A stretch of DNA of 64,000 nucleotides from Bacteroidales bacterium. Lineage in GTDB: Bacteria; Bacteroidota; Bacteroidia; Bacteroidales; Marinilabiliaceae. Of the stretch, positions 9,817 through 54,081 are shown piece by piece. The translations under genes and the position numbers were made by a program. A model generated the notes under the pieces. It was not told where the DNA came from. It made no database searches and saw only the letters and a program-made list of their open reading frames with translations. Location of the stretch: positions 37,122 to 101,121 of the forward strand of contig JAKSLH010000004.1 in assembly GCA_024401335.1 (NCBI GenBank), given 5' to 3'. Position 1 is the first letter of the stretch, and each line of letters opens with the position of its first letter.

Positions 9817-9828
9817 AGTTTCTTTAGA

Positions 9829-12978: not shown

Positions 12979-13010
12979 GAAATTAAACATGTTTTAACGC
13001 TTTCGGATGT

Positions 13011-13057
13011 GTTCAAAAAGGTTTTCTACACGTTCAACGATTTGCGTATTTGTTCAA
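13011..13057. promoter_or_regulatory. three GTTCAA direct repeats spaced 21 and 20 bp (candidate HTCS operator)
   Basis: GTTCAA occurs at 13011, 13032 and 13052 in the divergent susC/HTCS intergenic region. This is upstream of the putative susC -7 box. Confidence 0.35.
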
Positions 13058-13151
13058 AAAACGCCATAAAAAGCCCATTTTCTATTGCATTAGCCCATTT
13101 TTTAGTAAATTTATATCGTCAAACAACACGATTAACACATCTTTAGAACTA

Positions 13152-30185: not shown

Positions 30186-32060
30186 ATGAAAAAACACGTT
30201 ATTACACTGGCCGCTATCTTATGCGGCATGACCGTTATTCCTTTTAATGCTATGGCACAAAAAGAAAGATCAGAAATTGAAGAGAAATACAAGTGGAACG
30301 TATACGACTTGTATGCCAATGACGAGGCTTGGGAGGCAAAAAAGGCCGAACTCACAGGAAAAATTAAGGAGGTTGCCTCTTTTAAGGGCACACTCGGCAA
30401 GAGCGCAAAGAACTTGCTTGATTTCTTTGAGTTCAACACTGCATTGGGTCAAGAGTTGTCGCAACTCTACATCTATGCTTCTTTACAGAAAGATCAGGAC
30501 TTGAGAGTGGCTGAAAACATCTCACGCATCAAGGTTCTCCAAAACCTCAGCACTGAGGCTGCTCAGCTTTCTGCATTCGTAGATCCTGAACTTGCTGCTA
30601 TCGACAACGAGACTCTCGACAAGTTCATGGAGCAGGAACCTAAACTCAAGACTCTCTATGGCATGCGTATCGACCGCATCAAGAGAAACAAGGTTCATAC
30701 TCTAAGCCCTGTCGAAGAAGAACTAATGGCTAAGATGGGTATCATGGGCAATGTGCCATCTGACACGTATGACGTATTTACCGACGCCGAAATGCCTTGG
30801 CCAACAATAACTCTTAGCGATGGCACTGAGGTGGAACTCAATCAGGCTGCCTATAGTCAAGTAAGAGCATCACAGAACAGAGATGACCGCGAAAAGGCTT
30901 TCAACGCATTCTGGAGCACATACAGAAAGTTTGAGGGCACAATAGGCGAATTGATGAATGGCAACATCAAGCAGAATGTATTCTATTCAAAGGCCTATAA
31001 GTACGATTCAGCCCTCGAAGCAGCTCTCTACTATAACAACATACCTACAAGCGTATATCATTCGTTGATTGAAAATGTCAACAAGAGTTTGCCTACTTTC
31101 CACAGATACCTCTCTCTCAAGAAGAAGTTGATGGGACTTGACGAACTCAAGTATTCTGACATCTACGCTCCTGCCGTTGATGGTGTCGACCTCAAATTCA
31201 CATACGAAGAGGCACAAAAGCTGGTTCTTGAAGCTGTAAAACCTCTCGGCAATGATTACGGCAAAGTTGTAGAAAGAGCATTTAACGAAAGGTGGATTGA
31301 CGTATTCCCTAACAAGGGCAAGGCTTCTGGTGCATATTCGAACGGAAGCGCTTATAATGTTCACCCATACATCTTGCTCAACTACAACGGCCAGTATGAC
31401 GCTGTAGGCACTCTCATCCATGAGATGGGACACACAATGCACAGCTATTTCTCGAACAGCAAGCAGCCTTACCCAACAGCACGATATGCGATATTTGTTG
31501 CCGAAGTGGCATCTACATTCAACGAGGCTCTGCTCGATGACCTCATGCTCAAGAAACTCACTGATAAAGGTGAAAAGATCTCATTGCTCATGAGTATGCT
31601 CGACGGCTTCAAGGGCACTCTGTTCCGTCAGACTCAGTTTGCTGAGTTTGAACTTAAGATGCACGAGATGGCAGAAAGAAACGAGCCAATCACAGGCAAG
31701 TCGCTCACAAAGCTATATGGTGATATAGTAAAGAAGTATTACGGCGATGCAGAGGGTATTTGCAAGGTCGATGATATCGTAAGCATAGAGTGGGCATTCA
31801 TTCCTCATTTCTACAATGGATTCTACGTTTATCAGTACTCGACATCGTTTGTAGCATCTCAGGCTCTTGCAGAAAGAGTGCTCAAAGGTGGCGACAAAGA
31901 GAGAGAGATGTATCTCAACTTCATCTCGGCTGGTGGTTCAAAATATCCTATCGACATACTCAAGGATGCTGGTGTTGACATGACAACTTCAGAGCCATTT
32001 GACAATGCCATTAAGCGCATGAACGAACTGATGGATGAGATAGAGAAACTGATGAAATAA
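30186..32060 (+). CDS. pepF: oligoendopeptidase F (M3B metallopeptidase), secreted
   Basis: 624 aa with a signal peptide. HEMGH zinc motif and M3-type downstream Glu region (EVASTFNE). Confidence 0.85.
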   Translation: MKKHVITLAAILCGMTVIPFNAMAQKERSEIEEKYKWNVYDLYANDEAWEAKKAELTGKIKEVASFKGTLGKSAKNLLDFFEFNTALGQELSQLYIYASLQKDQDLRVAENISRIKVLQNLSTEAAQLSAFVDPELAAIDNETLDKFMEQEPKLKTLYGMRIDRIKRNKVHTLSPVEEELMAKMGIMGNVPSDTYDVFTDAEMPWPTITLSDGTEVELNQAAYSQVRASQNRDDREKAFNAFWSTYRKFEGTIGELMNGNIKQNVFYSKAYKYDSALEAALYYNNIPTSVYHSLIENVNKSLPTFHRYLSLKKKLMGLDELKYSDIYAPAVDGVDLKFTYEEAQKLVLEAVKPLGNDYGKVVERAFNERWIDVFPNKGKASGAYSNGSAYNVHPYILLNYNGQYDAVGTLIHEMGHTMHSYFSNSKQPYPTARYAIFVAEVASTFNEALLDDLMLKKLTDKGEKISLLMSMLDGFKGTLFRQTQFAEFELKMHEMAERNEPITGKSLTKLYGDIVKKYYGDAEGICKVDDIVSIEWAFIPHFYNGFYVYQYSTSFVASQALAERVLKGGDKEREMYLNFISAGGSKYPIDILKDAGVDMTTSEPFDNAIKRMNELMDEIEKLMK

Positions 32061-32082: not shown

Positions 32083-32123
32083 ACGGCAGTATGCATACTC
32101 ATATGCATGCTGCCGTTTTTTTT
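32083..32123 (+). terminator. intrinsic terminator after pepF
   Basis: Stem ACGGCAG-ATGCAT / ATGCAT-CTGCCGT followed by a T8 run. Confidence 0.8.
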
Positions 32124-32229: not shown

Positions 32230-32237
32230 TATTTTTG
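32230..32237 (+). promoter_or_regulatory. candidate -7 box (TAttTTTG) for first YfiR-like/TBDR module
   Basis: TATTTTTG lies 32 bp upstream of the ATG at 32269. No clear -33 element. Confidence 0.35.
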
Positions 32238-32268
32238 CCATAATTAAGCAACTAAAAAATAACCAAGG

Positions 32269-32772
32269 ATGAAGAAATCTTTTTTCATTTGCATCATGCT
32301 ATTGTTATGTGGCGTGTGCAAAGCTCAGATGGCGCAGTTCCAAGCGCTCTACATTTACAACTTCGCTAAAAATATCGGATGGCCTTCAGAAGACGGATCG
32401 AAAGACCTTGTCATCACTGTTGTCGGCGACAATGACCTGGCTGCTGAGCTCAACAAACTGGCAGCAACAAAGTCGATTGGTTCTAGAAAGGTTGTCGTAA
32501 AGGAATCAGCAACGACAAATGGCATTCAGAAAAGCGACATTGTATTCTTAGGCGAATCGAAATCAAGCCAAATAGCTTCGCTGATTACAGCCCAAGAGGG
32601 CAACAAAAACCTTATAGTCAGTGGCAAGAATGGACAATGCGGCCAAGGAGCTGGCATCGCGTTTTTGTCAGAAGGTGGCAAACTTAAGTTTGAGATATCA
32701 AACAAGAACATCTCGAAAAGAGGTCTGCAGGTAAGCCAGAAACTGCTTCAGCTCGGCACAGAAGTAGACTAA
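32269..32772 (+). CDS. YfiR/DUF4154-like periplasmic protein (copy 1)
   Basis: 167 aa with a signal peptide. Colinear by eye with Pseudomonas YfiR blocks (f..WP, l.v.VvG, c.vIyLG, ...GG.l.FE.n......GL.v...LL.LG). Confidence 0.75.
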   Translation: MKKSFFICIMLLLCGVCKAQMAQFQALYIYNFAKNIGWPSEDGSKDLVITVVGDNDLAAELNKLAATKSIGSRKVVVKESATTNGIQKSDIVFLGESKSSQIASLITAQEGNKNLIVSGKNGQCGQGAGIAFLSEGGKLKFEISNKNISKRGLQVSQKLLQLGTEVD

Positions 32773-32806
32773 AGGAACAGAACATCCCAGCTAAAAACTA
32801 TAAGCC

Positions 32807-35608
32807 ATGAAAATGAGAATAAAATATATTGCGGTGCTTGTATTGGCGTCGCTCATGTGTATCAATGTTGATGCTCAGCAGAAACTGACAAAGGATCAGA
32901 TCATGAGCATGAGCATAGAAGAGTTATCAGAGCTTCCACTCGAGGAGCTTATGGATGCAGTAGAGACACTAGGCGTTTCGAGTGTTGACGAACTCTTTGC
33001 ATTGATCATGAACAAGAACGTATCATCTGCATCAAAAGCAGAGGAGAACGCCTTCACCTCTCCCCTATCGACTACAGTAATCACAAAAGACGAGATGCGC
33101 ACATACGGCATACTCTCGCTTGAAGAGGCCTTCCGTCTTATACCAGGTATGATTGTCACAGAAAAGACACCAGGCAACTTTGATATACAGATGCGTGGCT
33201 TGAACAACATACCGGGTAACAGCTCTATCATGTACACAGAGAACGCTAACACGCTGTTGATGATAGACGGACGTCCTATGCACAACTATGGCATCGCGGC
33301 AATAACAATGGACCTCATGCCTATATCAATAGAGGACGTTGAGAGAATAGAAGTAGTAAGAGGAGCCTGCGGAGCATTGTATGGAGCTAATGCTGTGAGC
33401 GGTGTGATCAATATCATCACAGAGAAACCTGGCGAATCGTCGAAGACTGTTGCAGGAAACATACAGATGGGCAACAACAGTAACATGATAGGCGACATAG
33501 CAATACGTAATACATGGATGGACGGAAAGCTGTCGACAGGTGTCACATTCAACATGCAACACAGAGGACGCACAACAAACCTTCTTCCTAGCGCTCCATC
33601 ACAGTCGAACAGATATTACGTAGAAGACGACGACCTGCTCGAATCGACACGCAATATGCCTGTGGATGAGGAAGGACTGAAGAAGCTCTTGGAGAGCGGC
33701 AAGATACGCCTGGCTGTTGACGAAGAATGGATGTCGGCAAAGGATATTGACCGCTACCGCAACTATGTGGGCAGCACACTCAGCAATGCGACAGAGCCAT
33801 CTACAAACTTGACAGAGATGTATGATGATCCTAACGTGTCGCGCAACAACAAAGGCATAAACGGCTATATAAGTTTTGCTCCTTCAGATGGCATAAGATT
33901 CGACCTTACAGGAGGCTATCACCAGTCATCAGCATTAGTATCGACAGTAGTGGACTTCATCGCGCCACTGACAACACGCGAGGCTAAGAAAGGATATGTA
34001 AACCTTAACAGCCAGATAAAGAACTTCAGCGTAAACCTGGGCTATAACGCAGGTATACAAGACTATGTAAAAGGTCTTGCAGGATTCAAACTCTGGGAAC
34101 AGTCATTCAATGCAAACGCAGAATACACCCTCAAACTCGGGGATCTGGCGATCAAACCAGGCGTCTTCTATGAATGGATAAAATGTGAGGACTATCTGCC
34201 AGTATATAACACAGAAGGAGAAGCTAACCGCCAGACGCTAGTAAGTGCAGGTACATCGGCAACAGAAGCTTATTCATGGCATTATGAGAAGGCTGGAACA
34301 AAACCTGCCGAGGGTACAGACAGACTCTTTGGATTCTTCAACACAGAGACACACCTATATAGCGTAGCACCAAGTTTGCGACTCGACTACAAGATTGGCG
34401 ACTTGCGACTCATAGGAGCATTCCGTTCTGACAAGACAAGAATACCAGACAAGTGGAACAGCTCATGGCAGTTTGCCGCTAACTATAGCATCAACGATAG
34501 AAACTTTATTCGTTTTGTATATGGACGCGCCAACAGAAGTTGCTGTCTTGTGAACACATCTGCAGGCTTCCAATGGAACAAGACATACATGATGCCTGCC
34601 AAGATATACATGACTGGAAACCCTGATGCAGACCTTGTACATATAGACAATTTCGAAATAGGCTACAGATGGAGACCAACAAACAAGATATTGGTTGATG
34701 CAGAAGCTTTCTATTCAAGGTCGTCGGATTTCGGATTCTTGAGATCTGCTAAGTCTATGTTTGCAATCAGTGGCACTGACATGGTAACGGACCTTGTAGC
34801 ATGTGCGACAGTATTACGTCCGGTACTCGGACTTGACAACGCAACCATGGGTGGATATGTTTATAAGAACGGCATGGAGACTAGAACATATCTCAACTAT
34901 GAAAACGTACCTTTCAAGGCCAACCAGATGGGCTTGTCTATGAACGTTGACTACATCATCTCATCAAAGCTTATAGCAAAGCTGAACTTTAATGTGCAGC
35001 AAACAAAACTTGATGACTACTACGAATACAACAAGAATGTAGGCATATCTAAACAGCTTGGCATCGCGACACAAGAACTCTATGCACATCTGCTCTCGGG
35101 CGAGATTGTAGGCGACTTCTTCAAAGAGATAGACGCCATAATAGCAGAAACTGGTATGGATGCACAGACAGCTGTGGTTTCGTTCTTCACAAACCCACAG
35201 TATATCGACAAGCTCAACAAATTTGGCCAAGACCACGCTATCAAACATCAAGGCAATGACTTCTATTTCGGATCAACAAACTTTGAAGAGCCTCCAACAG
35301 AAAATGGTGTAAAACATGAAGCAACACCATCTGTCTATGGTATGCTCGGCTTGATATATAAGCCTATTGACAAGCTCAACATAGCAGCTTTTGGTAACTT
35401 CGTCGGCAAACGAACATTCAAGACTGGCTTTGGCGAACAGACACTTGACAACCGTTGTACAGTAAACGTCAAGATTGGATACAAACCTATGCAGAACTTC
35501 GAATTCTTTATGAATGCGCACAATCTATTCAACACAGAAAAGCAAGAGTTCATTTATAGTGACAAGATAGGTGGAACTTATACATTAGGCATCAATTTCG
35601 GCTTCTAA
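32807..35608 (+). CDS. TonB-dependent-receptor-like outer membrane protein with acidic helical N-extension (copy 1)
   Basis: 933 aa with a signal peptide. Plug motifs (LIPGMIV..., IERIEVVRGACGALYGANAVSGVINIITEKP), a long beta-rich barrel and a terminal ...GINFGF. Confidence 0.8.
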   Translation: MKMRIKYIAVLVLASLMCINVDAQQKLTKDQIMSMSIEELSELPLEELMDAVETLGVSSVDELFALIMNKNVSSASKAEENAFTSPLSTTVITKDEMRTYGILSLEEAFRLIPGMIVTEKTPGNFDIQMRGLNNIPGNSSIMYTENANTLLMIDGRPMHNYGIAAITMDLMPISIEDVERIEVVRGACGALYGANAVSGVINIITEKPGESSKTVAGNIQMGNNSNMIGDIAIRNTWMDGKLSTGVTFNMQHRGRTTNLLPSAPSQSNRYYVEDDDLLESTRNMPVDEEGLKKLLESGKIRLAVDEEWMSAKDIDRYRNYVGSTLSNATEPSTNLTEMYDDPNVSRNNKGINGYISFAPSDGIRFDLTGGYHQSSALVSTVVDFIAPLTTREAKKGYVNLNSQIKNFSVNLGYNAGIQDYVKGLAGFKLWEQSFNANAEYTLKLGDLAIKPGVFYEWIKCEDYLPVYNTEGEANRQTLVSAGTSATEAYSWHYEKAGTKPAEGTDRLFGFFNTETHLYSVAPSLRLDYKIGDLRLIGAFRSDKTRIPDKWNSSWQFAANYSINDRNFIRFVYGRANRSCCLVNTSAGFQWNKTYMMPAKIYMTGNPDADLVHIDNFEIGYRWRPTNKILVDAEAFYSRSSDFGFLRSAKSMFAISGTDMVTDLVACATVLRPVLGLDNATMGGYVYKNGMETRTYLNYENVPFKANQMGLSMNVDYIISSKLIAKLNFNVQQTKLDDYYEYNKNVGISKQLGIATQELYAHLLSGEIVGDFFKEIDAIIAETGMDAQTAVVSFFTNPQYIDKLNKFGQDHAIKHQGNDFYFGSTNFEEPPTENGVKHEATPSVYGMLGLIYKPIDKLNIAAFGNFVGKRTFKTGFGEQTLDNRCTVNVKIGYKPMQNFEFFMNAHNLFNTEKQEFIYSDKIGGTYTLGINFGF

Positions 35609-35634
35609 GAAGCATATTTAACCCATCAATAACG

Positions 35635-35672
35635 AGGTGGCAGACTACACAGTATTTTGCCACCTTTCTATT
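35635..35672 (+). terminator. intrinsic terminator between the two modules
   Basis: Stem AGGTGGCA / TGCCACCT followed by TTTCTATTT. Confidence 0.55.
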
Positions 35673-35862
35673 TACATATAACACGCTAAGACACACAACA
35701 TAAGATACAACCACACAAAAGGACAATCAATAGAACAAATCAGCAAATAATAGGAAGTATTTACGGACTCTTTTCAGGAATTATATCGGTATATTAGCAA
35801 CATATTAATAACATATACGTATCAAGCTAAATAACAAGTAATAACAACAAAACCATTTCTTT

Positions 35863-36366
35863 ATGAAAAGACTATTTTTCCTAGGGGTAATGCTTGCAAT
35901 TTGTGGTATATGTAAGGCTCAGATGGCTCAGTTCCAAGCGCTTTACATCTATAACTTTGCCAAAAACATCGGATGGCCATCAGAGGACAGTTCAAAAGAC
36001 CTCGTGATTACAGTTATTGGCGACAATGACCTTGCAGCGGAGCTCAACAAACTTGCGGCCACAAAATCTATTGGTGCACGCAAAGTCGTAGTAAAAGAAT
36101 CTGCCACTCCAAATGGCATACAGAAAAGTGACATCGTCTATCTTGGCGAAGCTAAATCTGGTCAGATAGGCGCATTGATAAGCGCCCAGGAAGGCAACAA
36201 AAACCTCATTGTCAGCGGAAAGAAAGGGCAATGTGCACAGGGTGCTGGGATATCATTCCAGTCAGAAGGTGGCAAGCTGAAATTCGAGATTTCAAACAAG
36301 AATATCTCAAAAAGAGGTTTACAGGTTAGCCAAAAACTATTGCAGCTTGGCACAGAAGTGGACTAA
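35863..36366 (+). CDS. YfiR/DUF4154-like periplasmic protein (copy 2)
   Basis: 167 aa, the same length as copy 1. The mature part is roughly nine-tenths identical by eye. Confidence 0.75.
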   Translation: MKRLFFLGVMLAICGICKAQMAQFQALYIYNFAKNIGWPSEDSSKDLVITVIGDNDLAAELNKLAATKSIGARKVVVKESATPNGIQKSDIVYLGEAKSGQIGALISAQEGNKNLIVSGKKGQCAQGAGISFQSEGGKLKFEISNKNISKRGLQVSQKLLQLGTEVD

Positions 36367-36396
36367 CAAACAAATAGAAACGCAAAAATCTACAAT

Positions 36397-39261
36397 ATGA
36401 AAATGAAGTATATCGCAGTCGCCCTCATTGCCATGTTAATGGCTACAAATGTGGACGCACAACAGAAATACAGTCGAGAGCAGATACTCAACATGAGCAT
36501 AGAACAACTTTCTGAGTTGCCTCTCGAAGACCTCATGGAAGCAGTTGAGACACTTGGAGTATCAAGTGTTGATGAGTTGTTTGCCATGATCATGAACAAA
36601 AACGTATCATCAGCATCAAAGCAGGAGGAAAACTCGTTCACTTCTCCTTTGTCATCAACAGTTATCACACGTGACGAGATACGCACATACGGCTGCTCTA
36701 CAGTAGAAGAGGCCTTGAGACTTGTTCCTGGTATGATGGTATCAGAGAAGCTTCCTGGTGTATTCGATGTTCAGATGAGAGGCTTGTCCAACATTCCGGA
36801 CAACAACATGTATGTTTACACTGAGAATATGAACATCCTTGTGATGGTTGATGGTAGAATTACTCACAACTACGCTGTGGGTATGCCTAGCCTCGAAAAC
36901 CTACCTATCTCTATAGAAGATATAGAGCGAGTAGAAGTAGTTAGAGGTGCGACATCATCACTCTATGGTCCTAACGCAGTACAGGGTGTTATCAACATCA
37001 TCACTCAGAAGCCGGACAACGCTCAAGCACAAGTAAGCGGTAGCCTCAAGCTTGGAAACAATTTCAGACAGGCAGAAGGTGCTCTCCGCAAAACATTTGG
37101 CAAATTGAGCCTTGGTCTTACATACAACATGCAGCGTCATAAGAGAGCTGTCAACACATTGTATCTTGCTCCTTCATCGAACACATACATCATCAATGAC
37201 AAATCGCTCTTTGATGGTCCGAACTACTACATGAGCAATGGTAATTTTGCTACTGGATTAGCATCAGGCAAAATAGAAGACGTGTCAGAAGGAAAGCACA
37301 TCTCACTGAATGACTACAGCAATTACTACACTGCATCAGGAAATGACGAAAATGGCATAGTATTCAGCTACAAGGGATTGAGCAACATTGAGGAGGCATA
37401 TCCAGACATTGAAATGGGCCGTAGAAACGACGGTATCAATGCGTATGTAACATTTGTTCCAAAGAGCGACATCCGTTTCGATTTGACAGCTGGCTACCAG
37501 TATTCATATCAAAACAATACACAGGTAGGTCAGGACAACGTTAGTGTGCGTGGTCGTGAATTCTCAACATTCTACACAAACCTCAATGCCGACATCAAGA
37601 ACCTCAAGCTTCTTGCCAACTACTATCAAGGTTGCAACCACTATTGTATGGGAGCTGCAGGTTTCCAGATGTATAACCAGCAAGCAAGTGTATCAGCAGA
37701 ATACACTATAAAGGTTGGCGAGTTAGGCATCAAGCCTGGTGTTGGATACCAGTACATCAAGCTCAAGGACCACAAGCCAGAGTACCTTGACTACAATGAC
37801 GGCACAGGTGTACATGAAACGTCTGGTTTCTGGGGTTACTATAGCCAAGGCAATGATAATGTAGAAAACGACGACATCTCTGGTAGCTTGCGACTTGATT
37901 ACAAGCACGAAGGTCTCCGCTTGATAGGTGCTGGACGTTTCGACAAGACAACTATTCCTGATGACTTCAACCCATCATGGCAGTTTGTTGCTTCATACGA
38001 GATAAACGACAGAAACTTCATTCGTGCCAACTACGGCCGTGCACGTCGATCAGCTGCCTTTGTAAACACTTCAAGTAACTACAACTGGCACAACGCATCT
38101 ATGCCACACTGGATTCAGTTCATGGGTAACGAAGATGCTTCACTTGTTAAGATCGACAATTTTGAACTCGGATATCGTTGGAAGCCAACCGCCAAGGTAC
38201 TTGTTGACGCAGAAGCATTCTACTCAATAAGCCAGGATTATGGTCAGCTTAAGGCATACAAGTCAATGTTGACACTTTCGTCAAACGACTTGACAACAAT
38301 ACTTGGTGGCCTCATGACAGGTCAGCTCACAAGCGAACAGGCAGGTGCTATGCTTCCTAACATGTTTGGTTCAAAGGCCTACATACGTTATGACAGTATG
38401 CCATTCAAGGTTTACCAGAAGGGTATCGGAGTAAATGTTGACTGGATCATTTCGCCAAAACTCATTGCTAAGGTCAACGCAAACGTTCAGCAGACAAAGA
38501 TTGACGACTACTACCAGTATAGCCAGGCAGACATGATCAGACAGCAACTTCTCACATCAGCTGCTGTCACAACAGCAAACATAACTCCACTCATCGGTGA
38601 AATCATGTATAATGTCCAGGTAGATGCTACAGCTGCAGCAACACAAGTAATGATGAACGGCGGCACTGCTGAAGAAGCACAAGTAGCAGGATTGGCAGCA
38701 GCACAGAAGTATGTAGGCGCATGCACAGGCTACACACCTGTACATCCTTACAGAGAGCAATATGAAGCTATGAGCGACAGCGAGAAGCAGACATACCTCG
38801 CAGGTCTTTTGCAGAAGTATGCCGCTAATGAGATGATTGATGGCAACGTACGTCCACTCGGTCTTTATTATGCGATGAAATATAACATAGAATATAACAC
38901 TGAGACTGACGAGTATTATTTCGGTTCATCAGTAGCCGAAAACCCAGAAACCCAAAATGGCTACAAGCACAAGGCTTGTCCATCATTCTATGGCAACATC
39001 GGTCTCATATACAAGCCAACCGAGAAGCTTTCACTCTCGACATTCGCTTACTTCATGAGCAAACGCGAGATCTGCACAATCTTCGGAACTCAGGACATAG
39101 ATCCCGTTTTCACAATGAACTTCAAGGCTGGATACAAGCCTGTCTCTAATTGTGAAGTATTCTTCGAAGCACACAACCTGCTCAACAGCAACAAGAGCGA
39201 ATTTGCTTATACCGACAAGATAAAGGGAACATATTCTCTTGGTATCAATTTCGCATTCTAA
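36397..39261 (+). CDS. TonB-dependent-receptor-like outer membrane protein (copy 2)
   Basis: 954 aa. The N-extension and plug are clearly homologous to copy 1 (MSIEQLSELPLEDLMEAVETLGVSSVDELFAMIMNKNVSSASK...). The barrel is much more diverged. Terminal ...GINFAF. Confidence 0.8.
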   Translation: MKMKYIAVALIAMLMATNVDAQQKYSREQILNMSIEQLSELPLEDLMEAVETLGVSSVDELFAMIMNKNVSSASKQEENSFTSPLSSTVITRDEIRTYGCSTVEEALRLVPGMMVSEKLPGVFDVQMRGLSNIPDNNMYVYTENMNILVMVDGRITHNYAVGMPSLENLPISIEDIERVEVVRGATSSLYGPNAVQGVINIITQKPDNAQAQVSGSLKLGNNFRQAEGALRKTFGKLSLGLTYNMQRHKRAVNTLYLAPSSNTYIINDKSLFDGPNYYMSNGNFATGLASGKIEDVSEGKHISLNDYSNYYTASGNDENGIVFSYKGLSNIEEAYPDIEMGRRNDGINAYVTFVPKSDIRFDLTAGYQYSYQNNTQVGQDNVSVRGREFSTFYTNLNADIKNLKLLANYYQGCNHYCMGAAGFQMYNQQASVSAEYTIKVGELGIKPGVGYQYIKLKDHKPEYLDYNDGTGVHETSGFWGYYSQGNDNVENDDISGSLRLDYKHEGLRLIGAGRFDKTTIPDDFNPSWQFVASYEINDRNFIRANYGRARRSAAFVNTSSNYNWHNASMPHWIQFMGNEDASLVKIDNFELGYRWKPTAKVLVDAEAFYSISQDYGQLKAYKSMLTLSSNDLTTILGGLMTGQLTSEQAGAMLPNMFGSKAYIRYDSMPFKVYQKGIGVNVDWIISPKLIAKVNANVQQTKIDDYYQYSQADMIRQQLLTSAAVTTANITPLIGEIMYNVQVDATAAATQVMMNGGTAEEAQVAGLAAAQKYVGACTGYTPVHPYREQYEAMSDSEKQTYLAGLLQKYAANEMIDGNVRPLGLYYAMKYNIEYNTETDEYYFGSSVAENPETQNGYKHKACPSFYGNIGLIYKPTEKLSLSTFAYFMSKREICTIFGTQDIDPVFTMNFKAGYKPVSNCEVFFEAHNLLNSNKSEFAYTDKIKGTYSLGINFAF

Positions 39262-39295
39262 AAGGGATTAACAACCATTATTTGTTATATTTGCA

Positions 39296-39332
39296 ATCCT
39301 GCCAGGAGGTTAAAGCCCTGGCAGGATTTTTC
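39296..39332 (+). terminator. intrinsic terminator after module 2
   Basis: 11-bp perfect stem ATCCTGCCAGG / CCTGGCAGGAT followed by TTTTTC. Confidence 0.8.
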
Positions 39333-39382
39333 ATTACAAACATTTTCAGCTTCAAGCCGTATTATAATCAAAACGAACCGAC

Positions 39383-41383
39383 ATGAAAAATTTACTACTC
39401 ATATTTCTTGCATGCCTGTTGGCCTCTGCATGGCAAACAACAGAAGCTCAAAAGAAATCGAAAGGTAAGCAAACCCAGAAATATAGTACAAAGAACAAAA
39501 AAGCCATAGAAGCATACGAAAAAGGCGAAATGGACGCCATGTATGACAGATACCAGTCGGCAATACTAAACTTTGAAACGGCGAAGAAATACGACCCGAA
39601 TTTCAAGGAAGCATACCATGCCCTTGCTGAGGTATATTATAACCTAGGAGATTTTGAAGAGCAGTTCCTTCACATACAAAAGGCCGTCACAATAGACTCG
39701 ACATATTTCATCACAGCATATTACAATGCCGGTGTAGCACTATGCAACCTCAACAGATTTAGCGAAGCCATGGAATGGTTTGATCTGTATAAGAAATTTG
39801 CACAGGGCAAGAAAAACATCAAAAACGTTGATGCTCTCATAAAGAAAGCTATGGCTATCAAATATATCATGGAACATCCTGTGCCATATAAGCCACATCT
39901 TGTCTCGGAAAATGTCGCTACAGAATATGACCAATACTGGCCTAGCATCACACTTGATGAAGAAGAACTCGTGTTCACGATGCAGCTGCCTCGCGATCCT
40001 GACGCCTATGCCAAAAACAAACTACTGCCAAGAGTTCCTTCTAACTTCCAAGAAGATTTTTATGTCAGCAGAAAAGTAAACAACGAATGGTCTGCACCTG
40101 TTCCAATGGTCAGCATCAACACTTCAAGCAATGAAGGAGCACAAGCGCTTTCGGCAGATGGAAGATGGATGTTTTTTACAGCATGCGGAAGGGAAGATTC
40201 AAAAGGATCTTGTGACATATATTTCTGCAGGAAAACACCGACAGGATGGTCAGAACCTATAAATGTAGGAGCACCTGTGAATACACCATACTGGGAGTCG
40301 CAGCCATGTTTTTCAGCTGATGGACAGACTCTTTACTTTGTCAGCGGACGCCCAGGAGGCAAAGGAGGTATGGACATATGGAAATCAAAGATAACAGGAT
40401 TCACTAAAACAGGCACGCCTATCTTTGGAACCGCCGTCAACCTTGGCGACTCAATCAACACAAGAGGAGACGAGACATCGCCTTACATACATCCTGATGA
40501 CAAAACACTATATTTCTCGTCCGACGGATGGCCTGGCATAGGAAAACTCGACATATTCATCAGCCGACGCAACGGCAATGGAGACTGGGGCACGCCAAGA
40601 AACATAGGCTACCCTATCAACACTCCTCTCGACGACAACGGATTTATAATAAACGCTGCTGGCACAACAGCATACATGTCATCGACAAGATTGCAAAAGA
40701 ATGGCATACAGAAACAAGACCTTCTATGCTTTGAAGTCCCAGAAGAGATACGTCCTGAACCTGTTTCATACATAAAGGGACATGTATATGATAGTAAGAC
40801 ATTACAGCCATTGATGGCGGACATAGAACTTGTTAGCCTTGACACTAAAGAGAATAGAGTCAAGTCGCAATCAGACAAGTCAAGTGGCACATTCCTAGTA
40901 AACTTGCCTGCAGGCAAAGACTACGGGTTGTTCGCGACATGCCCTGGATATCTGTTCAACTCACAGAATTATGCTCTGAGCAATGTCAAGGCGACATCAG
41001 GTATGGTCACACTTGACATACCATTGTCACCTATCGAGAAAGGTCAAAGAGTAACACTCAAAAACGTATTCTTCGACACCAATTCTGCCGAGCTCAAACA
41101 AGAGTCATTCGTGGAACTGGATAGGCTTATCGCACTGATGAGAAGCAATCCGAACATAAAGATTGAAATCGGAGGTCACACAGACAATGTCGGATCAGCA
41201 GAATATAACAAAAAACTATCTGAAGAGAGAGCGAAGACCACCGTTGACTATCTCTGCAGCAAAGGTATCAGTAGTGCAAAACTTACTTACAAAGGTTACG
41301 GCATGACGCAACCAGTAGCCGACAACAACACGGAAGAAGGCAGGGCTGTGAACCGCCGAATAGAGGCCAAGATCGTGCAATAA
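39383..41383 (+). CDS. porE: PorE-like multidomain protein (TPR + PD40 beta-propeller + carboxypeptidase-regulatory-like + OmpA_C peptidoglycan-binding)
   Basis: 666 aa. TPR region (residues ~40-140), repeated PD40 signatures (SADGRWMFFTA, FSADGQTLYFVS, HPDDKTLYFSSDG), CRD (IKGHVYDSKTLQPL...) and OmpA_C (FFDTNSAEL...GHTDNVGSAEYNKKLSEERA...NRRIE). This is the four-domain order described for P. gingivalis PorE. Confidence 0.65.
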   Translation: MKNLLLIFLACLLASAWQTTEAQKKSKGKQTQKYSTKNKKAIEAYEKGEMDAMYDRYQSAILNFETAKKYDPNFKEAYHALAEVYYNLGDFEEQFLHIQKAVTIDSTYFITAYYNAGVALCNLNRFSEAMEWFDLYKKFAQGKKNIKNVDALIKKAMAIKYIMEHPVPYKPHLVSENVATEYDQYWPSITLDEEELVFTMQLPRDPDAYAKNKLLPRVPSNFQEDFYVSRKVNNEWSAPVPMVSINTSSNEGAQALSADGRWMFFTACGREDSKGSCDIYFCRKTPTGWSEPINVGAPVNTPYWESQPCFSADGQTLYFVSGRPGGKGGMDIWKSKITGFTKTGTPIFGTAVNLGDSINTRGDETSPYIHPDDKTLYFSSDGWPGIGKLDIFISRRNGNGDWGTPRNIGYPINTPLDDNGFIINAAGTTAYMSSTRLQKNGIQKQDLLCFEVPEEIRPEPVSYIKGHVYDSKTLQPLMADIELVSLDTKENRVKSQSDKSSGTFLVNLPAGKDYGLFATCPGYLFNSQNYALSNVKATSGMVTLDIPLSPIEKGQRVTLKNVFFDTNSAELKQESFVELDRLIALMRSNPNIKIEIGGHTDNVGSAEYNKKLSEERAKTTVDYLCSKGISSAKLTYKGYGMTQPVADNNTEEGRAVNRRIEAKIVQ

Positions 41384-41469
41384 AATTATTTGATATATCA
41401 TCAAGTTTAATTAACTTTGTCACGACAACTATATGCGAGCACACGAACTGCCGCATGACATAAGCATTA

Positions 41470-44400
41470 TTGATGAAAAAAAGACTAACAGCCATAATAA
41501 TGGCTGCAACTGCCATTGGCGTATCAGCACAACGGTCAAGAGTTCACGAGACTGCACAGACTGAATATAACGCCGCAATGCAACTCTACGATGCAGAAAT
41601 GTGGGGGGCATCTCGTTCCGCATTTGCACAATTCATTGAGAATTGGAATCAGACAGATTTCATCCTATCTACCGACGCCAAGTATTTCCATGCCGTATCT
41701 GCCAAGCGCCTAAACAATAACGACGCGCCTGGCTTAATGACACAGTTCATTCGCGAATGCAAACAAAGCATTCGCCGACATGACATGTACTATCACCTCG
41801 GAGACTATTACCTTATCAACGAGAGTGAAAGACAGGCCCTCAAATGGTTTGAAAAAGCTGACTATAAGAAGGTCGACCCAGAACACAGAAATGACCTTCT
41901 TTTTAAAACAGGCTATTGCTATTTTGTAACCGGCAAACGAAACAAGGCATTATCATATTTTGACAGACTCAAAGGCACCTCACAGTACGAAAGCGCCGTT
42001 AAATACTATAAAGCTCACGTAGATTACGAAAACGGGAGTCTCAACGAGGCTCTTAAGACTTTCCTGGAACTTGAGAAGGATGCAGGGTTCAGTAATGTTG
42101 CACCATACTACATAGCTCACATCTTCTACCTCCAAGGACATTACACTGAAGCCATTCGCTACGCAGAGCCACTGACACAGACAAAGGGCAAGAAGGCCAT
42201 AGAGATGGTCAGAATAGTAGCAGACGGCCACTTCATGATAGAAGAATACCAGAAGGCTGCAACTAACTACGAGAGACTACAGAGCCTGACAAAGAATATG
42301 AACCGTGCCGACTACTACCATACAGGCATGTGCTATTATCATTTGGGTAAATACAACGAGGCTTCAAATGCTCTGTCGAAGGTCACTGGCGAGAAAGATG
42401 AATTGTCACAAAACGCATACTATCATCTTGCAGGATGCTATCTCCAGGCTAACGACAAGAAAAGAGCACGAACAGCTTTCGAGGCCGCATCTAAGTATGA
42501 CTTCGACAAAGCCATCAAGGAAGATGCACATTTCAACAAACTCAAACTAGCCTACGAACTCAACTTCACAGGATTCAACGAAATAGTAAGCGACTTCATT
42601 GAATTTGTCGATACATATCCTAAGAGCGACAAGGTTGACGAGGCATACGACTATATAAGCAAGGCATTGGTTACCACAAAGAACTACAAGCAAGCCTTGG
42701 CTACAATGGAAAAGATTCAGCACAAAAACCTGAAGATATACACGGCTATGCAACGCCTCTCATTCTACCGAGGCCTCGAGTTATACACAAACTTGAACTT
42801 CAACGAAGCGACTGAGTTCTTTGACTATAGCCTGCAATACGGAGACTACGACAAGAAACTAAAAGCACGCGCATATTACTGGAAGGGCGAATGTCTGTAC
42901 AGAACAAACAATCAGTATGCTGCCGCTGAACAGCAGTACATGAACTTCATTAACGCTTATAGTTCATCTGAGCTTGACGAATTCACTACAGCTCACTACA
43001 ACATTGCCTACACTCACTTTAACAGAAGGAAATATGCAGAGGCACGTAAGTGGTTCTTGAAATATGTAGGTCTATACAACACTGTTGACAAACGTCTGAT
43101 TTCCGACGCATACAACCGTTTGGGTGACTGCATGTATGTTCAGAGAGACTACAAACCTGCCATAGAATACTACGACTTAGCGTTGAAGACATCTTCACAA
43201 GTCGGAGACTATGCGATGTTGCAAAAAGGTATCTGCCTCGGCCTTACAAAAGACAACAAGGGAAAGATAACCCAGCTCAAGACTCTTATACAGCAATATC
43301 CTAAATCACAATATTGCGCTAATGCATATTATGAAATTGCAAGAGCACATGTAGCAATGGACGAGATTAAGGACGCTATCTACAACTACAAAGTGGTTAA
43401 AGAGAAGTACCCTAAGGGATCATTAGCAGCCAAAGCAATGGTTCAGCTCGGATTGCTATACTACAACGCATCAGAATACGACAATTCAATGGCGTTCTAC
43501 AAGAGAGTTATCAACGAATACCCATCTACATCTGATGCAAGTGATGCTTTAGCAGGACTCAGAAATGTGTATATGGAGCTTGGTGATTTCGATGGTTATC
43601 TGGCGTACACAAACACATTGGGCAGTTTTGCAAAGCTTGAGCTTCACGAGCAAGATTCATTGATGTTTACTAGTGCTGCAAGGATATATCTCAAAGGTGA
43701 CATGGAGAATGCCAAACCTGCACTCCAAAAATATCTGAACAAATTTGGAGATGGACGTTTCGTAATGGGTGCAAACTTCTATCTGGGCGAATGCTACTAT
43801 AGCGAAGGTAACAATGAGCAAGCGTTGACATCGTATGAATATGTGGCAGAACAAGCGCGAAACATATTCACAGAAGACGCTCTCCTGAGAACAGGCGAAC
43901 TATATTACAAAGCTGACAACTACGAAAAAGCATTTGCTTCATTCCAGAGACTGGAAAACGAGGCAGAGGTTGAAACGAATAAGGTTGAAGCTATAATTGG
44001 ACAGATGAGATGTCTTGAAAAAGCAGGTGACGCAGCATCATGTGTAGCTAGTGCCGACAAGGTTATCGACATGCCTCAGGCATCACCAGAAATAATGCGC
44101 GAAGCTAAATACCTGAAAGTAAAATCGCTCATCACCCTTCATAGGACAACAGAAGCGATACCAACACTTCGTGAATTATCTGAGAACACAAAGAGTGCAG
44201 AAGGTGCTGAGGCTAAATATCTTATTGCACAAGCATTCTTTGATCAGAACGATATCGAAAATGCAGAAAAAGAGGTGTTTGATTATGTAGAGCAAGGAAC
44301 GCCACATCAATACTGGCTTGCTAGAAGCTTTATTCTTCTTGCCGATATATATCATCAGAAGGAAGATGACTTCCAGGCTCGTCAATACCTCGAGAGCCTA

Positions 44401-44493
44401 AGTGAAAGCTACTCTGCAGACGACGATATATCAGACATGATTTCTCAACGTCTTTCTGCGTGGAAGGTGAACACTGCTACCCTACCTGATTAA
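41470..44493 (+). CDS. large TPR-repeat protein (YbgF/CpoB-like repeats), secreted
   Basis: 1007 aa with a signal peptide (no lipobox Cys). TPR-like A/Y/L periodicity throughout (..AYYWKGECLY.., ..ANAYYEIARAH.., ..ANFYLGECYY..). Confidence 0.7.
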   Translation: MMKKRLTAIIMAATAIGVSAQRSRVHETAQTEYNAAMQLYDAEMWGASRSAFAQFIENWNQTDFILSTDAKYFHAVSAKRLNNNDAPGLMTQFIRECKQSIRRHDMYYHLGDYYLINESERQALKWFEKADYKKVDPEHRNDLLFKTGYCYFVTGKRNKALSYFDRLKGTSQYESAVKYYKAHVDYENGSLNEALKTFLELEKDAGFSNVAPYYIAHIFYLQGHYTEAIRYAEPLTQTKGKKAIEMVRIVADGHFMIEEYQKAATNYERLQSLTKNMNRADYYHTGMCYYHLGKYNEASNALSKVTGEKDELSQNAYYHLAGCYLQANDKKRARTAFEAASKYDFDKAIKEDAHFNKLKLAYELNFTGFNEIVSDFIEFVDTYPKSDKVDEAYDYISKALVTTKNYKQALATMEKIQHKNLKIYTAMQRLSFYRGLELYTNLNFNEATEFFDYSLQYGDYDKKLKARAYYWKGECLYRTNNQYAAAEQQYMNFINAYSSSELDEFTTAHYNIAYTHFNRRKYAEARKWFLKYVGLYNTVDKRLISDAYNRLGDCMYVQRDYKPAIEYYDLALKTSSQVGDYAMLQKGICLGLTKDNKGKITQLKTLIQQYPKSQYCANAYYEIARAHVAMDEIKDAIYNYKVVKEKYPKGSLAAKAMVQLGLLYYNASEYDNSMAFYKRVINEYPSTSDASDALAGLRNVYMELGDFDGYLAYTNTLGSFAKLELHEQDSLMFTSAARIYLKGDMENAKPALQKYLNKFGDGRFVMGANFYLGECYYSEGNNEQALTSYEYVAEQARNIFTEDALLRTGELYYKADNYEKAFASFQRLENEAEVETNKVEAIIGQMRCLEKAGDAASCVASADKVIDMPQASPEIMREAKYLKVKSLITLHRTTEAIPTLRELSENTKSAEGAEAKYLIAQAFFDQNDIENAEKEVFDYVEQGTPHQYWLARSFILLADIYHQKEDDFQARQYLESLSESYSADDDISDMISQRLSAWKVNTATLPD

Positions 44494-44504
44494 ACGACAT
44501 TACA

Positions 44505-49779: not shown

Positions 49780-49811
49780 CTTGTTTTTTTTATTTCAGTT
49801 GACTACATTTG
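49780..49811 (+). promoter_or_regulatory. candidate promoter (cTTG-N20-TAcaTTTG) for MCP-pbpC-A2M unit
   Basis: TACATTTG at 49804-49811 and CTTG at 49780-49783. This places the TTG ORF start at 49809 inside the promoter. Confidence 0.45.
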
Positions 49812-49850
49812 AGTATCAAAACAAGATTTGAAAATCCACAAAATTCTGAT

Positions 49851-54016: not shown

Positions 54017-54081
54017 AGCGACAACATTTACGTTGACAAAAAAAACAGTAAATTTGAGAATATATATACAAATCAAGACAA

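Follow-up and report, generated by a model that had tools for sequence, protein, structure and literature searches.

Two tandem DUF4154/YfiR-like and TonB-dependent receptor cassettes belong to a conserved, often multi-copy gene unit of Marinilabiliaceae-like Bacteroidales

The binding partner of YfiR is the CHASE8-bearing protein YfiN, which in E. coli consists of CHASE8 and GGDEF domains. YfiR engages both of its partners through its C-terminal face, by edge-strand pairing of β7 and by a hydrophobic pocket, and the Cys145 region lies within this interface and is required for stability (PMC4655355). YfiR-like proteins of the family DUF4154 are also encoded together with TonB-dependent receptors (TBDRs) and sensors, as a preliminary description of the present locus had stated for Proteobacteria, and we found such neighborhoods in Alphaproteobacteria, Acidobacteriota, Armatimonadota and Bacteroidota-like contigs. 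They form three-gene operons. In Acidobacteriota, in Armatimonadota and on a Sphingobium plasmid the order is TBDR, DUF4154 and CHASE8 hybrid kinase; in the Bacteroidota-like contigs it is TBDR, DUF4154 and 4HB-GAF-HisKA-HATPase-REC kinase, where 4HB denotes a periplasmic four-helix-bundle domain. Sampled members of class I, the TOL_0243/TOL_0244 type, have overlapping genes. A literature search for class I three-gene systems returned no published description.

The locus studied here lies in a 64-kb stretch of Bacteroidales DNA, hereafter the window, and is composed of two tandem cassettes, 32269–35608 and 35863–39261 in the ORF list, both on the + strand together with the component features described below. 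Each contains a gene for a 167-aa small protein followed by a gene for a TBDR of 933 or 954 aa, separated by 34 nt in cassette 1 and 30 nt in cassette 2; these ORFs match the sizes and spacing of the preliminary description exactly. Cassette 1 is bounded on its 5′ side by the terminator of an upstream M3 oligopeptidase gene (32083–32116, + strand), seen in a consensus scan as a 15-bp stem with a T8 run and folding at −24.6 kcal/mol (z −7.3). A possible Bacteroidota −7 promoter box, TATTTTTG (consensus TAnnTTTG), was read by eye at 32230–32237, 32 nt ahead of the start codon of small gene 1. Direct reading of the sequence 5′ of cassette 2 revealed no counterpart. Both cassettes end in a strong hairpin with a U-tract, in line with the separate terminators proposed earlier at 35635–35672 and 39296–39332. 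The intrinsic terminator of cassette 1 (35634–35675) has its hairpin at 35634–35666, followed by UUUCUAUUU, and folds at −18.0 kcal/mol (z −6.0), while that of cassette 2 (39295–39336) has its hairpin at 39295–39328, followed by UUUUUCAUU, and folds at −21.9 kcal/mol (z −4.1). The simple consensus scan overlooked both; they were detected by folding against shuffled sequences, with 0/200 equally good shuffles in each case.

Small protein 1 (32269–32772) and small protein 2 (35863–36366) are 87% identical (145/167, BLASTP). HMM searches confirmed the families assigned by eye, with both small proteins matching the full Pfam model DUF4154 "YfiR/HmsC-like" (PF13689; E 4.4e-31 and 1.3e-30) and both receptors matching the Plug domain (E 3.3e-20 and 2.6e-19). 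Small protein 1 is secreted, with a signal peptide at aa 1–19 and probable cleavage between CKA and Q. Its AlphaFold2 (AF2) model (pLDDT 90.2) superimposes on the YfiR structure with a TM of 0.66–0.79 in Foldseek, whereas the family profile reaches PDB YfiR at E 7e-4 and ~20% identity. The block-for-block likeness to YfiR claimed earlier is thus clear in the fold and weak in the sequence. Residues aligning with the YfiR partner-binding face are retained in the small protein (E163 to E142, I169 to I148, and the C145 region), and across the family these positions are invariant or nearly so, whether the copy is paired or an orphan. The invariant C124, present in 98/101 family members, corresponds to YfiR C145; Ser or Ala stands in place of C152, and there is no C71/C110 pair, which agrees with the earlier view that a single YfiR cysteine is retained.

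Receptor 1 (32807–35608, 933 aa) and receptor 2 (36397–39261, 954 aa) share 46% identity in pairwise alignment, and read-through translation placed receptor 2 in the reading frame of small gene 2. The plug domain of receptor 1 occupies aa 84–200 (33056–33406; PF07715). The AF2 model (pLDDT 86.4) shows a plug, a 22-strand barrel and helical loop insertions at ~aa 656–687 and 743–809, and Foldseek matched this model to PirA, BtuB, Cir and PfeA (E 1e-30 to 1e-28, target-normalised TM 0.66–0.85). As modeled, the receptor is a true transporter of the plug-and-barrel type. The label "atypical" given to it earlier does not apply to this classical 22-strand transporter fold, but does fit the large loop insertions and the conserved N-terminal extension, the latter not highlighted in the preliminary description.

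The periplasmic N-terminal extension spans aa 24–83 of receptor 1 (32876–33055, beginning QQKLTKDQIMSMSIEELSELPLEELMDAVETLGVSSVDELFALIMNKNVSSASK) and aa 22–81 of receptor 2 (36460–36639), and the two are almost identical. It contains "LSELPLEELM...VSSASK" and ends in the TonB-box-like "NVSSASK", a TonB-box assignment made by position only. Conservation was 0.88–0.93 in the extension, whose 40 aa are the best conserved of the receptor family, 0.71–0.88 in the plug and 0.2–0.4 in the loops. Between the cassettes, dN is lowest for the small genes (0.079), followed by the extension (0.146), the plug (0.304) and the barrel (0.575). Synonymous sites of the small genes are saturated (pS 0.80), indicating that the similarity of the two cassettes reflects selection and not gene conversion. 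AF2 predicted the extension as short helices with a pLDDT of 42–72; low confidence together with the highest conservation is what a segment folding upon a partner should show.

The peptide "LSLE(E/D)LM", just ahead of the TonB-box position, occurs in every receptor that is encoded next to DUF4154 and has its N-terminus intact, and a second data set gave the same result. A strict regular expression for the motif matched 53 ORFs, all of them family receptors, and 0/467 other long ORFs; 17 further family receptors carry variant forms, as judged by inspection. The SusC-like receptors of the same DNA, the few negative controls, lack it in 4/4 cases. At one locus (L084) the motif is on a 409-aa outer-membrane protein encoded upstream of DUF4154, without recognisable TBDR plug sequence. 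Class I receptors have one motif copy, and the kinase-less class II has a three-part extension of ~55 aa. The motif marks DUF4154-adjacent outer-membrane proteins in four phyla, and motif-bearing TBDRs may occur elsewhere without a DUF4154 neighbor.

The close-family set comprised 83 related loci and the window, with 101 DUF4154 genes, of which 64 have a family receptor directly 3′. The cassettes form arrays of up to three, at 2–4 loci per genome and across many genera and habitats, and their flanks are unrelated between loci. The 83 related loci hold no conserved third gene; no third gene family recurs in more than 10 loci, and the recurrent neighbor families are explained by single-genus synteny. 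The TBDR–DUF4154 pair is a conserved, often multi-copy unit of Marinilabiliaceae-like Bacteroidales, upholding the two-gene unit seen at this locus.

A further 26/101 family DUF4154 genes are orphans located among housekeeping genes with no adjoining receptor, and with these orphans the earlier claim that the barrel is the sole possible site or partner of small-protein action goes too far. A diffusible regulator with another target fits the orphan genes at least as well.

No CHASE8, 4HB or GGDEF protein is encoded within the window. Its sole kinase is a PUL-type hybrid two-component regulator (13050–17201), and a dCache chemoreceptor gene lies at 49809–51680, 10 kb downstream of the cassettes. 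As first described, the locus has no cyclase or kinase partner, and neither do the 83 related loci. The kinase partner in relatives that had been named as counter-evidence does exist in distant relatives (~30–37% identity) but not in the close family. The 1.46 Mb sampled from these genomes, a clade sample and not a genome, contained neither a GGDEF signature nor a homologue of the 4HB or CHASE8 sensor domains. The module is probably not a c-di-GMP switch. Gene order follows the presence of the sensor, with TBDR, DUF4154 and sensor in 7 loci and DUF4154 before TBDR without a sensor in 23.

We tentatively favor a model in which the cassettes are a sensor-less class II derivative whose small protein docks on the receptor extension, with docking coupled to TonB-box availability. 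The ancestor would be a widespread, undescribed three-component envelope system made up of a TBDR, a YfiR-like periplasmic protein and an inner-membrane sensor kinase with a periplasmic CHASE8 or 4HB domain. The small protein, probably dimeric like YfiR, would dock through its conserved C-terminal face. Because the extension lies immediately next to the TonB-box position, docking would be tied to the receptor's ligand and TonB state. Where a sensor is present, the receptor would trap the YfiR-like inhibitor and set the kinase free, in the way YfiB frees YfiN. In the cassettes here, which lack a kinase and have the three-part extension, the most likely output would be control of the receptor itself, with TonB coupling, and through it uptake, licensed or blocked. 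Since small proteins and extensions are nearly interchangeable while barrels and surface loops diverge, a shared pool of small protein may serve several receptor specificities. In a low-power mutual-information test on 59 non-redundant pairs, covariation of the small protein was not enriched for the extension relative to the plug (28% of top pairs versus 24% expected). No receptor-like motif was found in the periplasmic domains of the sensors, leaving a simple model of competition by mimicry unsupported. Alternatively, the extension could be the contact site for a dedicated TonB paralogue.

A possible, though somewhat doubtful, explanation is that ligand-bound receptors titrate the shared pool of YfiR-like protein and thereby free an unlinked inner-membrane sensor, be it a kinase, a chemoreceptor or another protein, with one small gene accompanying each receptor gene so that the stoichiometry stays balanced. 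This follows the logic of YfiBNR (PMC4655355), and presumably that of the class I three-gene systems. The orphan genes, the near-interchangeability of the small proteins, the retained sensor-binding residues of YfiR and the dCache chemoreceptor in the window are all consistent with it. However, interchangeable small proteins could not carry a receptor-specific signal, no sensor gene recurs near the cassettes, and the sampled DNA yielded no 4HB or CHASE8 homologue. The additional extension and flipped gene order of class II appear exactly where the sensor is missing, which suggests rewiring and not relocation of a sensor gene.

It is unlikely that the small protein is instead a half-size periplasmic substrate-binding protein that takes over a molecule imported by the receptor. 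Its best structural matches after YfiR are a Rhodothermus substrate-binding protein and the ABC_sub_bind structures 3LKV and 3LFT, the latter solved with L-Trp; the resemblance of YfiR to substrate-binding proteins was also noted in the YfiR paper (PMC4655355), and co-transcription with a transporter would suit such a role. Against this, the small proteins are almost static while the barrels and loops they would serve diverge strongly, and the residues they conserve lie on what in YfiR is the protein-binding face. In addition, the cassettes have no linked gene for an inner-membrane transporter, ABC-type or other, and the same protein family teams with sensor kinases in class I.

More improbable still is a redox or stress sensor in which the lone C124 reports periplasmic redox state, by a reversible intermolecular disulfide or a modification, and modulates the receptor. 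C124 lacks the intramolecular partner found in YfiR, its YfiR counterpart lies in the interface region needed for stability (PMC4655355), and L139–L142 contain a fusion of DUF4154 with an AhpC/TSA thioredoxin-like domain and a BlaR1-type sensor. However, this cysteine is retained in only ~30% of the wider Bacteroidota-like relatives and is missing from class I proteins, so the receptor partnership does not require it; the receptor extension showed no conserved cysteine, and C124 may be buried and purely structural. That the cassettes are decaying, functionless leftovers of three-gene systems, as the missing sensor gene might suggest, is effectively refuted by intact ORFs throughout, by strong purifying selection on old duplicates (dS saturated, dN 0.08–0.15 for small gene and extension) and by growth of the family into arrays at several loci per genome.

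Among known systems, SusC/SusD resembles the cassettes as a multi-copy, two-gene outer-membrane uptake module of Bacteroidota with a dedicated accessory and diversified receptor loops. Here, the accessory is encoded upstream and is not a surface lipoprotein but a small periplasmic protein bearing a type I signal peptide. The receptor has no CarboxypepD_reg domain at its N-terminus, scores 20 versus 46 bits for the SusC signature and so lacks it, and the cassettes have no linked genes for glycan degradation. The FecA-FecR-FecI transducers share the concept of a periplasmic N-terminal extension by the TonB box that contacts a periplasmic or inner-membrane partner and reports ligand occupancy inward. 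The cassettes have neither an STN-type signaling domain nor genes for an anti-sigma or ECF sigma factor; their extension is a short helical peptide without a Pfam match, and a soluble YfiR-like protein is its putative partner.

YfiBNR (TpbB; P. aeruginosa, E. coli) and HmsCDE (Yersinia) have in common with the locus the DUF4154 family, the YfiR fold, periplasmic secretion, the partner-face residues with the Cys145 equivalent, and a small gene beside that of an outer-membrane protein that could sequester its product. The locus differs in having neither a CHASE8-GGDEF cyclase (YfiN) nor a YfiB lipoprotein, in using a TBDR as the outer-membrane partner and in being multi-copy. A Cys145–Cys152 disulfide is impossible in its proteins, the Cys71/Cys110 pair is missing, and they score 36 bits for the NCBIfam YfiR equivalog, far under the cutoff of 85. 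The best-scoring curated models for both proteins are NCBIfam TOL_0243 YfiR-like (NF053591) and TOL_0244 TBDR (NF053590), although scores stay under the cutoffs (100 versus 125 bits for small protein 1; 120 versus 645 bits for the receptor, plug only). Sampled members encode TBDR, DUF4154 and CHASE8 sensor kinase, whereas the window has the reverse order without a sensor, and its receptor differs from TOL_0244 in the ~55-aa three-part extension and a barrel 200–300 aa longer. What the two share is the DUF4154–TBDR pairing itself and the receptor motif "LSLE(E/D)LM ... V(T/S)S(A/V)SK".

The four open reading frames that the preliminary description had arranged as two tandem cassettes were found precisely as described, all on the + strand. 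In cassette 1, a gene for a 167-aa small protein (32269–32772) is followed after 34 nt by a 933-aa receptor gene (32807–35608). In cassette 2, a second 167-aa small gene (35863–36366) precedes a 954-aa receptor gene (36397–39261), with a gap of 30 nt. Both terminators proposed earlier consist of a stable hairpin and then a U-tract (−18.0 kcal/mol, z −6.0, and −21.9 kcal/mol, z −4.1). Because these close the two cassettes and the upstream M3 peptidase gene ends in a third strong terminator, each cassette is a separate transcription unit. The small and receptor genes of cassette 2 (35863–39261, + strand) share a reading frame, with one TAA stop and the 30 nt between them; those of cassette 1 lie in different frames, and the shared frame is probably coincidence.

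The two small proteins are 87% identical, and the two receptors 46%. Synonymous sites between the small genes are saturated (pS 0.80), indicating that the duplication is old and ruling out recent gene conversion as the source of the high identity. As read from these substitutions, the likeness of the small proteins is a product of purifying selection. Nonsynonymous divergence (dN) between the cassettes is lowest in the small gene (0.079) and increases through the N-terminal periplasmic extension of the receptor (0.146) and the plug (0.304) to the barrel (0.575).

Profile searches placed both small proteins in DUF4154 (PF13689, YfiR/HmsC-like; E 4e-31 and 1e-30), the family suggested for them earlier, with 108.3 and 106.8 bits against a cutoff of 24.9 and a match across model positions 2–142 of 143. 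Sequence likeness to YfiR is weak, the family profile reaching only E 7e-4 against the PDB. The likeness is clear in the fold. The AF2 model (pLDDT 90.2) matched P. aeruginosa YfiR in Foldseek (4zhu, 4xjy, 4yn9; E 1e-8, TM 0.66–0.79), so that the small protein has the YfiR alpha/beta fold, half of a type I periplasmic-binding-protein fold. The matches after YfiR were half-size and full periplasmic substrate-binding proteins, and YfiR itself has been reported with the same structural neighbours (PMC4655355). The equivalog cutoffs were not reached for YfiR proper of the YfiBNR system (NF053586, 35.5 and 36.8 bits against 85) or for TOL_0243 YfiR-like proteins (NF053591, 100.0 and 98.4 bits against 125); P0275, a true TOL_0243 member, scores 331 bits with the latter model.

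In the YfiB–YfiR complex, YfiR meets both partners via its C-terminal face, where strand beta7 pairs by its edge and a hydrophobic pocket adds to the contact; E163 and I169 are key residues (PMC4655355). In the small protein these align with E142 and I148, which, like the C-terminal block around them, vary little or not at all across the family. YfiR also contains a Cys145–Cys152 disulfide and a Cys71/Cys110 pair, whereas the window small proteins retain only the Cys145 equivalent, as the preliminary description had supposed. This residue, C124, is the one invariant cysteine in an alignment of 43 family members; the Cys152 position is Ser or Ala, the Cys71 position Thr or Val, and the Cys110 position Ser. 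The small protein is thus a member of Pfam DUF4154 but falls outside YfiR proper in score, operon partners and cysteines. Its signal peptide ends 'CKA↓Q', which we take to fit both a type I signal peptidase substrate and the Bacteroidota 'Q-rule', and on this ground the mature protein is probably soluble and periplasmic and not a lipoprotein.

Receptor-less runs of DUF4154 genes also occur among the sampled loci, including three in a row after two cassettes (L034, 13004–15231) and others listed at L096, L101 and L117; pairs are found beyond L034. In P0275 (342 aa), two tandem DUF4154 domains are joined in a single protein. Such arrangements are consistent with the protein acting as a dimer.

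The receptors were assigned to the TonB-dependent receptors (TBDRs) by the Plug profile PF07715 (73.0 and 70.1 bits, cutoff 23.9), in agreement with the earlier reading. The Pfam barrel model did not reach E 0.01 on the window receptors and is recorded for most homologues. The AF2 model (pLDDT 86.4) shows a plug within a full 22-strand beta-barrel, and Foldseek comparison to PirA, BtuB, Cir, PfeA and FepA gave E 1e-30 to 1e-27 and target-normalised TM 0.66–0.85. Judged by this model, the receptor is a genuine classical TonB-dependent transporter. Its unusual features are large helical loop insertions at about residues 656–687 and 743–809 and a periplasmic extension of about 60 residues at the N-terminus. 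The usual pre-plug TonB-box position is held by the non-canonical 'NVSSASK', a putative TonB box by position.

The receptor is a TBDR outside the TOL_0244, SusC and FecA-transducer families. With the TOL_0244 model NF053590 (cutoff 645) the receptors scored 120.1 and 113.8 bits, and the aligned part was the plug only (model positions 11–166 of 604). SusC/RagA-type receptors are marked by a SusC signature, a CarboxypepD_reg domain and a SusD gene, and the window receptors lack all three: TIGR04057 gave 20.4 bits against 46.2 for receptor 2 and no match for receptor 1, and neither the domain nor a SusD neighbour was found. In contrast, the true SusC/SusD pair of the window (8260–12927) does show SusC-type features. 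That pair (SusD, 8260–9816; SusC, 9829–12927) lies in a polysaccharide-utilisation locus (1894–17201) with GH3, two esterases, an unknown 467-aa protein and a hybrid two-component regulator (13050–17201) unrelated to the cassettes. FecA-type transducers differ in carrying an STN domain and adjacent anti-sigma and ECF sigma genes. The extension of the window receptors has no STN domain, nor any other Pfam domain at E 0.01, and no sigma or anti-sigma genes were found flanking the cassettes. Each cassette co-transcribes a classical TBDR with a YfiR-fold periplasmic protein that has a conserved protein-binding face.

Scanning the close family with one genome per species gave 78 loci, all from Marinilabiliaceae-like Bacteroidales. 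Their hosts include gut metagenome-assembled genomes from horse, ruminants, reindeer and humans, and the cultured genera Marinilabilia, Carboxylicivirga, Geofilum, Alkalitalea and Natronoflexus; at least 17 genomes hold 2–4 separate loci each. With five further loci and the window, the set contains 101 DUF4154 genes. A family receptor directly follows 64 of these, in arrays of up to three cassettes, while nine have a receptor only before them, two lie at a contig edge and 26 are orphans. Orphan copies keep the same signature residues as paired copies. An ExbBD/TonB operon had been suspected around the orphans; Pfam instead identified housekeeping genes (UDP-sugar and glycosyltransferase genes, cmk-lytB-DUF4834-dNK and recF-dciA).

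No conserved third gene accompanies the pair. Clustering of all genes within four on each side at 83 loci placed every third family at 10 loci or fewer; apart from the receptor and additional DUF4154 genes, only single-genus synteny recurs. The proposed absence of a cyclase or kinase partner was borne out at the locus, where both a YfiN-type CHASE8-GGDEF protein (CHASE8 being the periplasmic domain of YfiN) and a YfiB-type lipoprotein are missing. The sole histidine kinase of the window is the hybrid regulator of the polysaccharide-utilisation locus, 15 kb upstream. Across 1.46 Mb sampled from the clade, a GG[DE]EF pattern matched none of 1,112 ORFs, and two 'HD..GYP' matches were both M20 peptidases. 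When the same sample was searched by BLAST with sensor domains taken from eight sensor proteins linked to DUF4154 (five full kinases and three shorter sensors), the only matches were generic kinase-core ones to PUL-type hybrid regulators.

Neighbouring genes give little indication of a substrate. No known RNA or riboswitch was found upstream in the window or in seven related loci, and no metabolic gene is consistently linked to the cassettes. In four loci (L002, L003, L029 and L036) the pair lies immediately upstream of metH, which encodes the B12-dependent methionine synthase; L002 showed no cobalamin riboswitch, and the adjacency therefore gives no firm link to B12. An M3 oligopeptidase gene (30186–32060) lies directly upstream of cassette 1, M3 and M20 peptidases occur near orphan copies in three loci (L021, L026 and L027), and an MR_MLE-type, dipeptide epimerase-like gene is directly upstream of the pair in L004 and L005. 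L025 and window positions 21274–22329 were also counted among these loosely recurring peptidase and peptide-related neighbours. The recurrence is a weak hint of peptide substrates and may be chance.

Three envelope genes on the + strand (39383–46325) lie directly downstream of cassette 2, behind its terminator. They encode a 666-aa TPR/PD40/OmpA protein, a TPR protein of 1007 aa whose repeats are YbgF/CpoB-like, and a 606-aa protein for which Pfam gave nothing beyond a weak beta-barrel match below threshold. The best NCBIfam models for the 666-aa protein are CHU_0125 'outer membrane integrity' and PorE, both below cutoff, and it scores 85.7 bits as YfiB against a cutoff of 128. As the trio is not conserved beside cassettes in relatives, it is probably an independent envelope cluster. 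Further downstream, 10 kb from the cassettes, a methyl-accepting chemotaxis protein with dCache_1 and MCPsignal domains is encoded at 49809–51680 (+ strand); the window shows no che genes. Few classical gut Bacteroidales are known to have chemoreceptors, and this one fits the Marinilabiliaceae-like affiliation. Next to it (51683–59553, + strand) are genes for a PBP1C-type penicillin-binding protein (Transgly, Transpeptidase, BiPBP_C) and, after it, an 1823-aa bacterial alpha-2-macroglobulin, the classical pbpC-yfhM periplasmic defence pair.

The best NCBIfam models of the two cassette proteins are themselves a matched pair, 'TOL_0243 family YfiR-like periplasmic protein' and 'TOL_0244 family TonB-dependent receptor', and from these paired names curators evidently noticed the DUF4154–TBDR pairing. 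We sampled wider neighbourhoods starting from P0275. In Acidobacteriota and Armatimonadota, overlapping three-gene operons encode a TBDR of about 715 aa, a DUF4154 protein and a CHASE8-HAMP-HisKA-HATPase-REC kinase, and plasmid pSRL1 of Sphingobium indicum likewise has the order TBDR, DUF4154, CHASE8-kinase. This context is found at three sampled loci (L086, L087 and L168) and in part at a fourth, L084. There, a 409-aa outer-membrane protein (5784–7013), with no recognisable TBDR plug sequence and no Pfam match on record, replaces the TBDR and is followed by the DUF4154 gene and a CHASE8 kinase. Another sampled DUF4154 locus is an orphan beside transposases. YfiN/DgcN at the E. coli reference locus joins CHASE8 to GGDEF, making DUF4154–CHASE8 the canonical partnership, and by analogy the TBDR of the three-gene operons stands in the place of YfiB.

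A metagenome scan with a Bacteroidota-like DUF4154 subgroup (30–49% identical to its query) added 80 loci. The order was DUF4154 then TBDR, with no sensor, in 23 of the 80; TBDR, DUF4154, then sensor in seven; and DUF4154 then sensor in nine. Four had DUF4154 fused to a BlaR1/M56-AhpC/TSA membrane protein, 24 were other or orphan, ten were at a contig edge and three had no DUF4154 ORF called. Here the sensors are hybrid kinases in which a periplasmic four-helix bundle (4HB) precedes GAF, HisKA, HATPase and two REC domains. Gene order tracks gene content: the receptor comes first if a sensor follows (class I), and the small gene comes first if there is none (class II), with exceptions in the close family at L030, L032 and L039. 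YfiR-like proteins are recurrent TBDR partners in at least four phyla, usually with a sensor kinase too. The preliminary description had held that a kinase partner in relatives would count against its reading; such partners exist in distant relatives, as TBDR-DUF4154-kinase operons, and are absent from the close family. The TBDR, DUF4154, CHASE8-kinase context was found neither at the window locus nor at the 83 close-family loci, and the window cassettes are missing the sensor of other lineages.

In the fusions, at L139–L142 (e.g. L139, 4674–8450), DUF4154 forms the C-terminal part of a BlaR1/M56-type membrane protein of 1258 aa, in which an AhpC/TSA thioredoxin-like domain is present too; a free DUF4154 gene follows. 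They wire DUF4154 to a membrane sensor in another manner, possibly with a redox link.

Every DUF4154-adjacent receptor with an intact N-terminus carries a shared motif after the signal peptide, directly before the TonB-box position. It reads 'DLTDFSLEDLMNLEVTSVSK' in Acidobacteriota, 'DLTELSLEDLLDVEVKVTSASK' in Armatimonadota, 'SLEELRDM...LDVTSVTR' in Sphingobium and 'LSLEDLMNIKITVAS' in Bacteroidota-like class I systems, so that the motif at the receptor tip accompanies DUF4154 across phyla. The 409-aa protein of L084, in which no TBDR plug is recognisable, has 'DLTELSPEELIDMDV' before its DUF4154 gene, which argues that the peptide travels with DUF4154 adjacency and is untied to the TBDR scaffold. 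In the close-family data, a strict regular expression matched 53 ORFs, all of them family receptors, and 0 of 467 other long ORFs; the 17 family receptors that it missed have motif variants on inspection. The motif is also absent from all four SusC-like receptors of the same DNA, a small number of negative controls.

Class I, sensor-linked receptors have one motif copy. In class II, sensor-less receptors, an extension of about 55 residues in three parts is present at any barrel size (690–1030 aa) and reads 'LTKDQIMSMSIEELSELPLEELMDAVETLGVSSVDELFALIMNKNVSSASK' in the window. This periplasmic tip is the most constrained part of the TBDR. Among 62 family receptors, conservation is 0.88–0.93 at residues 41–80, the highest of the whole protein, compared to 0.71–0.88 in the plug and 0.2–0.4 in the loops. 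The extension is modelled as short helices of low confidence (pLDDT 42–72), and the combination of high conservation with low model confidence is the pattern expected for a segment ordered by a partner. The N-terminal peptide is the obvious candidate docking site. APC-corrected mutual information, a low-power test here, showed no enrichment of covariation between the small protein and the extension, and no mimicry was found between the extension motif and the periplasmic domains of the sensors.

We infer that the small protein docks on the receptor extension. Since this segment borders the TonB-box position, its contact with the small protein would be linked to the release of the TonB box upon ligand binding. 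A class I receptor would in this way sequester the YfiR-like inhibitor and switch the kinase on, as the TBDR equivalent of YfiB. In class II systems, the small protein may license or block the TonB coupling of its receptor in a self-contained manner. We favour this role, with some reserve, because the sensor has been lost, the extension lengthened and the gene order flipped. A broader and more speculative reading is that the 'LSLE(E/D)LM' peptide and the YfiR-like protein mark an unrecognised, multi-phylum class of TonB-dependent transducers, in which a short N-terminal peptide beside the TonB box would recruit a soluble periplasmic adaptor. The class I adaptor would pass ligand occupancy to CHASE8 or 4HB sensor kinases. 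In class II, the lengthened extension and the adaptor would form a self-contained periplasmic 'safety catch', capping or exposing the TonB box and thereby gating energy coupling of the whole paralogous receptor set.

The main rival supposes that several receptors titrate a common pool of the small protein, whose target would be an unlinked membrane component; the many orphan DUF4154 copies speak for this arrangement, which we consider possible and somewhat less likely than the self-contained role. A ligand shuttle would suit the fold of the small protein but not its constancy against such divergent barrels, and is improbable. That C124 serves as a thiol sensor is very improbable, as most of the wider relatives lack this lone cysteine. 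The selection data, namely saturated synonymous sites and low dN, exclude a decaying remnant.

To our knowledge, the one role described for YfiR is that of a periplasmic brake on a single diguanylate cyclase, and TonB-dependent transducers are described only in the form of FecA, anti-sigma and ECF sigma. The comparative data here link YfiR-like proteins with TonB-dependent receptors; our literature search found no paper relevantly joining DUF4154, YfiR or CHASE8 with these receptors. The sensor-less class II form, its extended N-terminal peptide and its expansion in gut Bacteroidales appear to be new. The window cassettes represent this form, whose expansion took place in Marinilabiliaceae-like Bacteroidales of gut and marine origin. 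Should the docking model prove true, it would describe a new periplasmic route of signalling or gating for outer-membrane transporters and give a function to a slice of DUF4154, a family of about 20,000 clusters at 50% identity. The hypothesis lends itself to direct tests, since some hosts are in culture (Carboxylicivirga, Marinilabilia) and the interface that it predicts is small. In function, the closest analogues are YfiBNR, in which an outer-membrane protein sequesters a periplasmic inhibitor, and the FecA-type transducers, which signal via an N-terminal extension beside the TonB box.
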